Of a DNA stretch of 64,000 bases, positions 33,891 through 42,280 are shown one piece after another. The stretch is taken from assembly GCA_951406725.2 (NCBI GenBank), contig OX597822.1, positions 33,604,001-33,668,000 of the forward strand, written 5' to 3'. Numbering within the stretch: position 1 is the first letter of the stretch; the number at the start of each line of letters is the position of its first letter. Under the pieces are notes generated by a model. That model ran no database searches. It was not told the DNA's origin and saw only the letters and a list, made by a program, of their open reading frames with translations. Both the position numbers and the translations under genes were made by a program. Origin of the DNA: Octopus vulgaris (Eukaryota).

Positions 33891-34417
33891 CTTGCTCTCT
33901 GTCGCTCCTTCTCCCTGCTCTCTTTTCCCTCTGCCTGCTGCTATCACATGACCAGTGGCCAGTTCCTCTTTTTTCTTCCTTTCTTAGACTGGTCCCTTAG
34001 CTGACCAGTTGCAAATTCTCTGTCTCTCTCCATTCTCCATTCTCCATCCTTCCAAACATTTTCAAAATGTTAACCACTATTCTCATCTCTTTGGTTGGTC
34101 CCAAGGTTGAATTTTGTTTCACTGTTTGTCCTCGTCCACCATCCTAAATCACATGCCGTTTCATTTTGCTTGTTTTGTTTTTGTTTTGTTTGCTCTTGTC
34201 CCTAATTCTATGCAAGGAAACTTCTTTTTGCAAGCACTGCCAATTGGGAAGCACTTAGTCTTATCGTTATAGGTGTGAAACTGAACGGTACTATTGGTCG
34301 ATAACTGATGAAGAATTACGGACCTTCTGTTTGTCTCCTGTTCATTTTTGCATTCAGTATATGTTATGTCGTCTGTTTATACATTTTCCATTTACACACA
34401 CACACACACACACATAC

Positions 34418-34459
<42 letters not shown>

Positions 34460-34463
<4 letters not shown>

Positions 34464-34800
34464 AATGATAAATCTCAGAGCGAGTTATCATTGTTTGATT
34501 TCACTTTTTCAATATCAGTGTCATATCGACACTGGAAAAAGTATATGTATTTGTGAAGGAATCTGACTTCTCGTCGACAACCATGATTGTCACACGCTGA
34601 TGAAAGGTAAACACCTTGAAACTCGGGTACGTGTGTATCATGTGTTGAAGACAGGGAGGATGACTCCCCTTCACAAATACTGACAGGACACAGATAGTGT
34701 GTCTATAGCCAGCGGGAGGAGGTGTCTTCCTGGGGCTACAAACTACAGTAGCATCCACCCTTTTGGGTTAGCCATATTCAAATGGCATATATGCATCACG
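34460..34800 (+). mobile_element. ~340-nt highly structured hammerhead-bearing element (retrozyme- or Penelope pLTR-like) inside a (TA)n tract
   Basis: Consecutive hairpins over the whole length, central hammerhead, (TA)n on both sides, no meaningful ORF. Confidence 0.6.
34573..34652 (+). ncRNA. Type I hammerhead ribozyme, apparently intact, with extended stem I
   Basis: CACACG (34591-96) - CTGATGA (34597-603) - AAGGT aaac ACCTT - GAAAC tcgg GTA - CGTGTG (34630-35). Stem I continues via CATGAT/ATCATG, CAAC/GTTG and GTC/GAC. Predicted cleavage after A34629. Confidence 0.9.
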
Positions 34801-34835
<35 letters not shown>

Positions 34836-41952: not shown

Positions 41953-42236
41953 TGAAGTACAAAGTACTGAAGTATAAAGAACTACTGTATTACAGATAGT
42001 AAATTAAAAAGAACAGTTGTCCTCAAAGATCATCACTTCAGATGCACTACATATATTCAACAGTGCAAAAGTGCAGCTGATCATTGAATTTCCTGAAATG
42101 TCACTCTTGTTTTTTCATGCAGATGGTGTCCCTAAGCATATAGAGTCAGTGACTTTTGCATTTGATTCTTTACTTGAATATGCAAATTTTTTCATGTCTA
42201 GTACTTCATTGTTTCAGCAAGTAGAATGACGTGTAC

Positions 42237-42280
42237 ACTTCACTGATGAGGTCTAATAAGACTGAAACATGGTTTGAAGT
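42237..42280 (+). ncRNA. Minimal type I hammerhead ribozyme
   Basis: ACTTCA - CTGATGA - GGTC taataa GACT - GAAAC atg GTT - TGAAGT. Stem I is a perfect 6 bp; the cleavage triplet is GUU. Confidence 0.75.

Follow-up and report, generated by a model that had tools for sequence, protein, structure and literature searches.

Metazoan non-LTR retrozymes, described from coral, mussel and axolotl by Cervera and de la Pena (2020, PMC7229834), are non-coding tandem repeats of 170-400 nt with a GC content below 50%, a canonical type I hammerhead ribozyme and a self-paired circular fold; the main text of that study names no cephalopod (its supplement may list some). A preprint on Xenopus (Li, Clavereau and Pollet, bioRxiv 10.64898/2026.07.22.740005) describes retrozymes that occur as monomers, dimers and multimers alongside Penelope-like elements (PLEs), proposes that retrozymes are non-autonomous PLE derivatives, and reports that one of nine predicted dimers cleaved in vitro. 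PLEs have two ends separated by a tail and an inverted 5'-truncated copy, with TA targeting notably in the Hydra clade (Craig et al., 2021, PMC8557442), and for Anolis PAc the two ends correspond in vitro to two RT start sites, with both strands extended (PMC11167929). Among LINEs, the Tx1-clade elements Tx1L in Tx1D, Keno in U2 genes and Tx1-Mar in Mariner-N4 combine APE-RT and a zinc-knuckle ORF1 with insertion at a single position in another repeat (Kojima, 2015, PMC4494074).

We describe here a 353-nt octopus repeat family, of which one copy lies in the 64-kb window (the whole stretch of DNA that was analyzed). The family shows the testable features of the metazoan non-LTR retrozymes and, by these sequence features, belongs to this already known class; its unit length compares with 350-390 bp for the mussel units (PMC7229834). 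It differs from the retrozymes of that study in its short, two-armed arrays with fixed ends in (TA)n, and it is known from genomic sequence. Co-occurrence with PLEs, and the presence of monomers, dimers and multimers, are shared with the Xenopus retrozymes, but the link to PLEs is drawn from pLTR homology in the preprint and from insertion anatomy in the octopus family, for which no pLTR homology was found in the PLE families sampled. Overall, the octopus family fits the proposal that retrozymes are non-autonomous PLE derivatives. With Hydra-clade PLEs and Anolis PAc it shares (TA)n targeting, an inverted 5'-truncated copy, two tail-separated ends and a hammerhead near the end, whereas it has no ORF and its ends lie 43-47 nt apart, compared with the reported 30-40 bp (PMC8557442, PMC11167929). 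The hammerhead of the unit is canonical, while those of the local PLEs have a long stem II. The octopus LINE discussed below is like the Tx1-clade elements in domains and in its single insertion position, and differs from them in that its target is a ribozyme-bearing retrozyme (PMC4494074).

We consider it probable that the window motif is the type I hammerhead of a young, incomplete retrozyme copy, likely copied into (TA)n by a PLE; the cycle set out below is our proposal for how the family moves. The family extends retrozymes to an apparent cephalopod. Because its ends are young and well defined, experiments in vitro could directly test the proposed Penelope partnership, and its natural variants are tests of dimer cleavage and of tolerance at position 10.1-11.1. 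The family also serves as fixed target for a small group of LINEs, a type of target absent from the literature searched; in that search (hammerheads with octopus, retrozyme or Tx1 targets, not exhaustive) both the family and a retrozyme-targeting LINE were unreported.

A 353-nt repeat family and its copy in the window

The repeat unit is non-coding, has 42% GC and carries one type I hammerhead. A DNA search of the organism's own 2.8-Gb genome gave 2,416 candidates, among which the 40 best share 96-100% identity across most of 221 bases, and the exact 27-nt core occurs in 194 copies genome-wide (control, 0), with many older relatives besides. Units are arranged head to tail with a 353-nt period, as at L015, L016, L020 and other loci, very often with an inverted arm. 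The predicted circular fold of the unit has an energy of -128.9 kcal/mol; compared with 60 shuffles, z is -8.6, and for the minus strand -7.5. The family is also present in four public runs, labelled as four organisms, and each has a 353-base head-to-tail joint. Contigs of four runs presumed to be RNA cover the unit piecemeal, with neither a joint nor an end, and such contigs cannot show cleavage or circles. Retrozymes of animal genomes contain thousands of such hammerheads, and a single motif is ordinary. The original prediction, which placed the motif in what looked like an intron or intergenic region, was right that the motif is real, but the motif lies within a dispersed mobile repeat. Because it is part of a young, high-copy retrozyme family, it is not rare, nor is a link to a host intron evident. 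Another hammerhead family, with eight copies in alternating orientation at a period of ~900 bp, is present at L051 (G000:C1:150061345-150064661).

The window copy is single and incomplete, extending from 34460 to 34800 between an (AT)n microsatellite on the left (34414..34460) and a (TA)n microsatellite on the right (34801..34835), which together form the target. Its short inverted arm of 29 nt (34460..34488, minus strand) corresponds to unit positions 340-368 and stops at the second of two fixed 3' ends, class B (blastn of the doubled unit, 100% identity). The sense arm (34482..34800, plus strand) covers unit positions 1-319, stops at the first fixed 3' end, contains the single ribozyme and is 96% identical to a tandem unit at L016. 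These boundaries are common to 30 loci. The nearest sampled relative differs by only 0.4%, and the insertion is therefore recent. Neither the unit nor the 64-kb window contains an ORF with RT plus GIY-YIG. As a monomer, the window copy falls outside the preprint's definition of an "active" retrozyme copy; with one ribozyme it is predicted to be capable of one cut, without releasing a unit circle. We regard it as an end product with a single ribozyme.

The hammerhead motif and its variation among copies

All elements of the hammerhead lie on the plus strand. The core segment CUGAUGA (C3-A9, 34597..34603), identified by reading the sequence and by a core pattern search, is preceded by the 5' strand of stem I with its extension and the UGU side of the internal loop (34578..34596; sequence, fold and covariation). 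Stem II (34604..34617; sequence, family alignment and covariation) is followed by the segment 34618..34629, which comprises G12-A15.1 (GAAA, 34618-34621), stem III with 2 bp and UCGG, U16.1 and A17. Stem III is ACUCGGGU (34621-34628), A17 lies at 34629 at the end of the GUA triplet (34627-34629), and cleavage is predicted after A34629. The 3' strand of stem I, the unpaired U1.7 (34636) and the 3' strand of the extension occupy 34630..34647 (sequence, alignment and fold). Stem I has 6 bp (CACACG, 34591-34596, with CGUGUG, 34630-34635) and continues past an internal loop, UGU (34588-34590) opposite U34636, into an extension formed by CAUGAU/AUCAUG and CAAC/GUUG with a one-base bulge. The core bases, stem I, internal loop and extension that had been claimed from the sequence are thus all present in 34578-34647; stem II also stands, but instead of the proposed 5 bp with an AAAC loop it is better drawn with 4 bp, A10.1-U11.1 at its base and a 6-nt UAAACA loop.

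The motif has the type I core (CUGANGA, GAAA, UH, a three-way junction and an open stem I), and its helices agree with the layout of canonical metazoan type I hammerheads, in which helix I has 6 bp, helix II 4 bp and helix III 1-2 bp with a palindromic loop (PMC4209133). GUA is found in natural hammerheads, and a single viroid test showed it to be slower than GUC (PMC1636495). The tertiary contact between loops I and II reported elsewhere involves an unpaired U1.7 and the last A of loop II (PMC11875169); both bases are present here, as U34636 and A34613, and docking is predicted. The window copy departs from the G10.1-C11.1 pair, highly conserved in hammerheads though not universal, in having A-U instead. 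The core pattern has one match in the window and none in 100 shuffles, and a looser version has 1,815 matches genome-wide, including other hammerhead families, compared with 7 for the reversed control. An Rfam scan, which the original prediction had put forward as a check, gave no hammerhead match for the window motif at the gathering score or at E up to 10, and none for 17 related loci. On its sequence and the copy comparisons described below, the window motif is a real type I hammerhead motif, with self-cleavage predicted.

A second, unrelated and older-looking hammerhead-like motif lies on the plus strand at 42233-42279, with CUGAUGA, a 4-bp stem II, GAAA and a 5-bp stem I; a GTCAGTGAC motif is found ~100 nt upstream of it.

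The segment 34547..34680 (plus strand) is predicted to fold into a long rod capped by the hammerhead, with an outer stem between 34547-34559 and 34668-34680 (-53.6 kcal/mol, z -6.6 against shuffles); for 34573-34654 the z value is -3.6. The predicted minimum-energy fold is inactive, with CUGA of the core paired to UCGG of loop III, and the active fold, at -48.0 kcal/mol, lies ~5.6 kcal/mol above it. This predicted ground state, in which the core is sequestered, counts against easy activity as a monomer. Monomers may nevertheless cleave, because good cleavage in monomeric form is reported for invertebrate hammerheads whose stem III has 2 bp (PMC7229834). As a dimer, the 8-nt stem III of the window copy is fully self-complementary, including two G-U pairs, and the intermolecular duplex has a predicted energy of -8.9 kcal/mol.

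To compare copies we aligned 50 family sequences, excluding other families (L051, L056, L057 and L191-L193), a look-alike inside a LINE, three near-duplicates and nine copies whose flanks are truncated or rearranged, and counted covariation over 48 distinct copies. Core invariance in this alignment is by construction, since most rows were chosen on the core pattern. On the named structure, 89.9% of 909 cells are paired and 57 cells are changed on both sides, counts that are inflated by relatedness among the copies; none of 500 shuffles reached either value, and slid controls gave 16-52%. Double changes convert A-U to G-C in stem I in 10 rows and G-C to A-U in stem II in 14, and they also affect two loop-III pairs that can form only between two molecules, where the palindromes UCGA, UGCA and CCGG occur. 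Such palindrome switching in loop III favors dimer cleavage, at the level of sequence. Conservation of U1.7, and likewise of the final A in loop II, is at least 90% across the 50 family sequences. Position 10.1-11.1 is unpaired in 35 of the 48 distinct relatives and G-C in 2 of the 48, so that the A-U pair of the window copy is no sign of decay. Nor does it exclude membership in type I, since the axolotl Amex2 hammerhead, with a 2-bp stem III and U-U at the base of stem II, cleaves, and does so better as a dimer (PMC7229834). The caveat that had been attached to this pair is accordingly weak. A retrozyme subfamily ~86% identical to that of the window, found beside the LINE at L107, L108, L110, L111, L113 and L114, has the canonical G10.1-C11.1 and C at N7.

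An unbiased test of the core was obtained from 28 loci chosen on the stretch 3' of the ribozyme, from which 14 copies covered the ribozyme. In those 14 copies, 4 of 154 core cells differ, compared with 210 of 1,754 flanking cells (gaps counted). Intact cores are the family norm, being present in 10 of 14 and 15 of 19 copies. We conclude from these comparisons that, at the family level, the hammerhead is a sequence that has evolved under selection. Preferential conservation of core bases and covariation of stems among genomic copies, on whose presence or absence the original prediction had in part staked its reading, are both found, and they back the assignment to type I and the cut site after A34629. 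Its idea of cleavage as a dimer is backed by the loop-III covariation, the cleavage itself being predicted.

A LINE at a fixed site and a predicted promoter

Between two units 5.7 kb apart lies a 5.3-kb LINE with APE endonuclease, RT and zf-RVT domains and a zinc-knuckle ORF1, whose closest solved relative is human L1 ORF2p (E 4e-64); we describe it as L1/Tx1-like, the Tx1 label being given by resemblance. Genome-wide, a 26-nt pattern taken from its 3' end has 21 matches, which fall at the 21 closest loci. In 20 of these 21 copies (L117 is the exception) the 3' end joins exactly at unit position 90, equivalent to 34571, although in one of the 20 just the 20-bp site follows before the sequence passes into another LINE copy. 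At 15 loci examined for the 5' junction, eight full-length copies join exactly after position 109, with a 20-bp duplication, two more lie within 3 bases, and the others are truncated or rearranged. The site duplicated in these copies is empty in the window copy (34571..34590, plus strand) and lies 27 nt ahead of the hammerhead core. One LINE copy has an open ORF2 of 1,144 aa. Of nine more distant matches (89-92%), most have other flanks and one is located within a diverged retrozyme. At its end the LINE has AAUAAA followed by five bases, and ordinary polyadenylation is for this reason a rival to hammerhead trimming of the LINE RNA.

Two sets of related LINEs were seen elsewhere in the genome. 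One element, 83% identical in DNA over 1.2 kb and 81% in protein (L229:2-1200, G000:C3:20816122-20817621), ends at +1 of a U2 snRNA gene. A sister subfamily at ~89% (L128-L133, mostly G000:C27:22.8-26.3 Mb) is clustered on one contig and is followed by a different shared sequence, for which Rfam gave no match.

Upstream of the LINE site, the hexamer ATCAGT (34514..34519, plus strand) is predicted to be the core of a proximal sequence element from its sequence and its spacing relative to U1/U2 loci. It stands 57-61 nt before +1 in 19 of 20 U1/U2 loci, the twentieth being the one where the related LINE end abuts the U2 start; in the unit it precedes the LINE junction by 57 nt. Of 36 diverged family segments, 27 retain the hexamer. 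A 50-column ungapped promoter profile scores negatively at the site (rank 244 of 127,900), and a likely snRNA-type promoter in the unit is suggested mainly by hexamer and spacing. Newt satellite 2 has a promoter of the snRNA type. If the octopus promoter is right, transcription is predicted to start near 34573, where the extended stem I begins.

Insertion ends, a candidate Penelope partner and competing explanations

Across 39 loci, class-A ends (unit 319-321) run straight into (TA)n in 22 of 22 cases, and class-B ends (unit 364-368) do so in 23 of the 24 true ends that remain when four internal rows are dropped from 28. The unit thus has two fixed end positions ~43-47 nt apart and displays the insertion anatomy of PLEs: a tail with two ends, an inverted 5' copy and a microsatellite target. 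Copies differ by 1.7% within a locus and by 4.2% between loci; the within-locus difference is below that to the nearest other locus in 13 of 34 loci, and the nearest other locus is closer in 21 of 34. The arms are longer than one unit and continue unbroken through the cleavage site, and the template would therefore be either a circle or an uncut multimer, two forms that are not distinguished because within-locus copies are closest in only 13 of the 34 loci.

The cycle that we propose would begin with transcription from a promoter inside each unit, starting near 34573. Two hammerheads in head-to-tail copies would pair through their palindromic loop III and cut after A17, and a host ligase would circularize the released 353-nt unit, giving a self-paired circle. 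Priming by a TA-targeting Penelope-type RT/endonuclease would then take place on both target strands, at two fixed positions in the RNA, and give the back-to-back arms, while the L1/Tx1-like LINE would use the family's predicted start site as a fixed insertion point. A fuller three-tier system can be drawn from this, which we offer as a tentative and, taken whole, rather unlikely picture. A self-locked monomer hammerhead would be unlocked by dimer loop pairing and expressed from the snRNA-type promoter; a Hydra-clade Penelope enzyme, using both target strands, would start its copies of the RNA circle at two fixed internal points; and a LINE akin to the inserters at U2 starts would sit at the start site and borrow the promoter, its read-through RNA being trimmed by the hammerhead 59 nt past its end.

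The end anatomy that leads us to a Penelope partner is the same as that of PLEs themselves, and the unit could instead be the pseudo-LTR of an autonomous PLE as yet undiscovered, with the window copy as a 5'-truncated solo end. PLE frames do adjoin the unit in two loci (L031/L044 and L045), and vertebrate retrozymes resemble pLTRs (bioRxiv 10.64898/2026.07.22.740005). In 43 loci, however, unit follows unit at the 353-nt period with no sense RT frame between, and the adjoining PLEs have their own termini, a different, long-stem-II hammerhead and TA-rich target sequence between them and the unit, which makes this explanation improbable. Mobilization in the manner of a SINE by the LINE found with the family (physically linked to it in 20 of 21 copies, one of which has an open ORF2) seems to us very improbable: lying inside units with a 20-bp duplication, the LINE is the inserter, and unit ends in (TA)n at two internal positions, with inverted arms and no poly(A), are unlike the ends of this LINE.

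There are two further readings. The intact core, together with the mention of amniote intronic hammerheads in PMC7229834, could suggest that the window copy is a ribozyme adopted by the host and acting on one of its own transcripts, perhaps from an intron. Against this, intact cores are normal in the family, the copy shares 99.6% identity with another dispersed one, its insertion anatomy is fresh, and the 64-kb window yielded no identified host gene, so that adoption is scarcely credible. The prevailing lack of the canonical G10.1-C11.1 pair and the greater predicted stability of the inactive fold would suit a DNA-level minisatellite whose decayed hammerhead no longer cuts, but that account is very unlikely, since the short arrays are spread over many contigs, their ends are of the retrotransposition type, subfamilies show compensatory changes relative to one another, and the core is conserved.

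For the preferred reading, a young retrozyme copied by a PLE, the partner is named as a class only, because the termini of the PLE families examined are not homologous to the unit and their hammerheads have a long stem II. Young PLEs of the Hydra type are present in the genome, with open frames of 842 and 899 aa that have, at the C terminus, a GIY-YIG-type region recognized by eye (Pfam gave no match on this region); a CxCX5C linker was also seen by eye in one family. The two families, one with the 899-aa frame and a tandem period of ~3.6 kb and one with the 842-aa frame (L102/L103, G000:C1:119512000-119529000, and L134-L139), both carry a long-stem-II hammerhead with a palindromic stem III. 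By blastn, the unit has no terminal homology to the sampled PLE families; the genome holds more than 11,000 further PLE candidates. The PLE frames at L031/L044 and L045 were considered as partners and rejected, since they are insertions in their own right at TA targets that the two have in common. A 33-nt match in L099 was likewise rejected as PLE homology, since it belongs to another small TA-inserted element: this back-to-back element (L099:845-1125) lies inside a PLE 3' region, and its 3' end is 91% identical to the retrozyme tail over 33 nt. By eye, the first end of the unit and the end of one PLE family also share a short resemblance, GCATCAYG.
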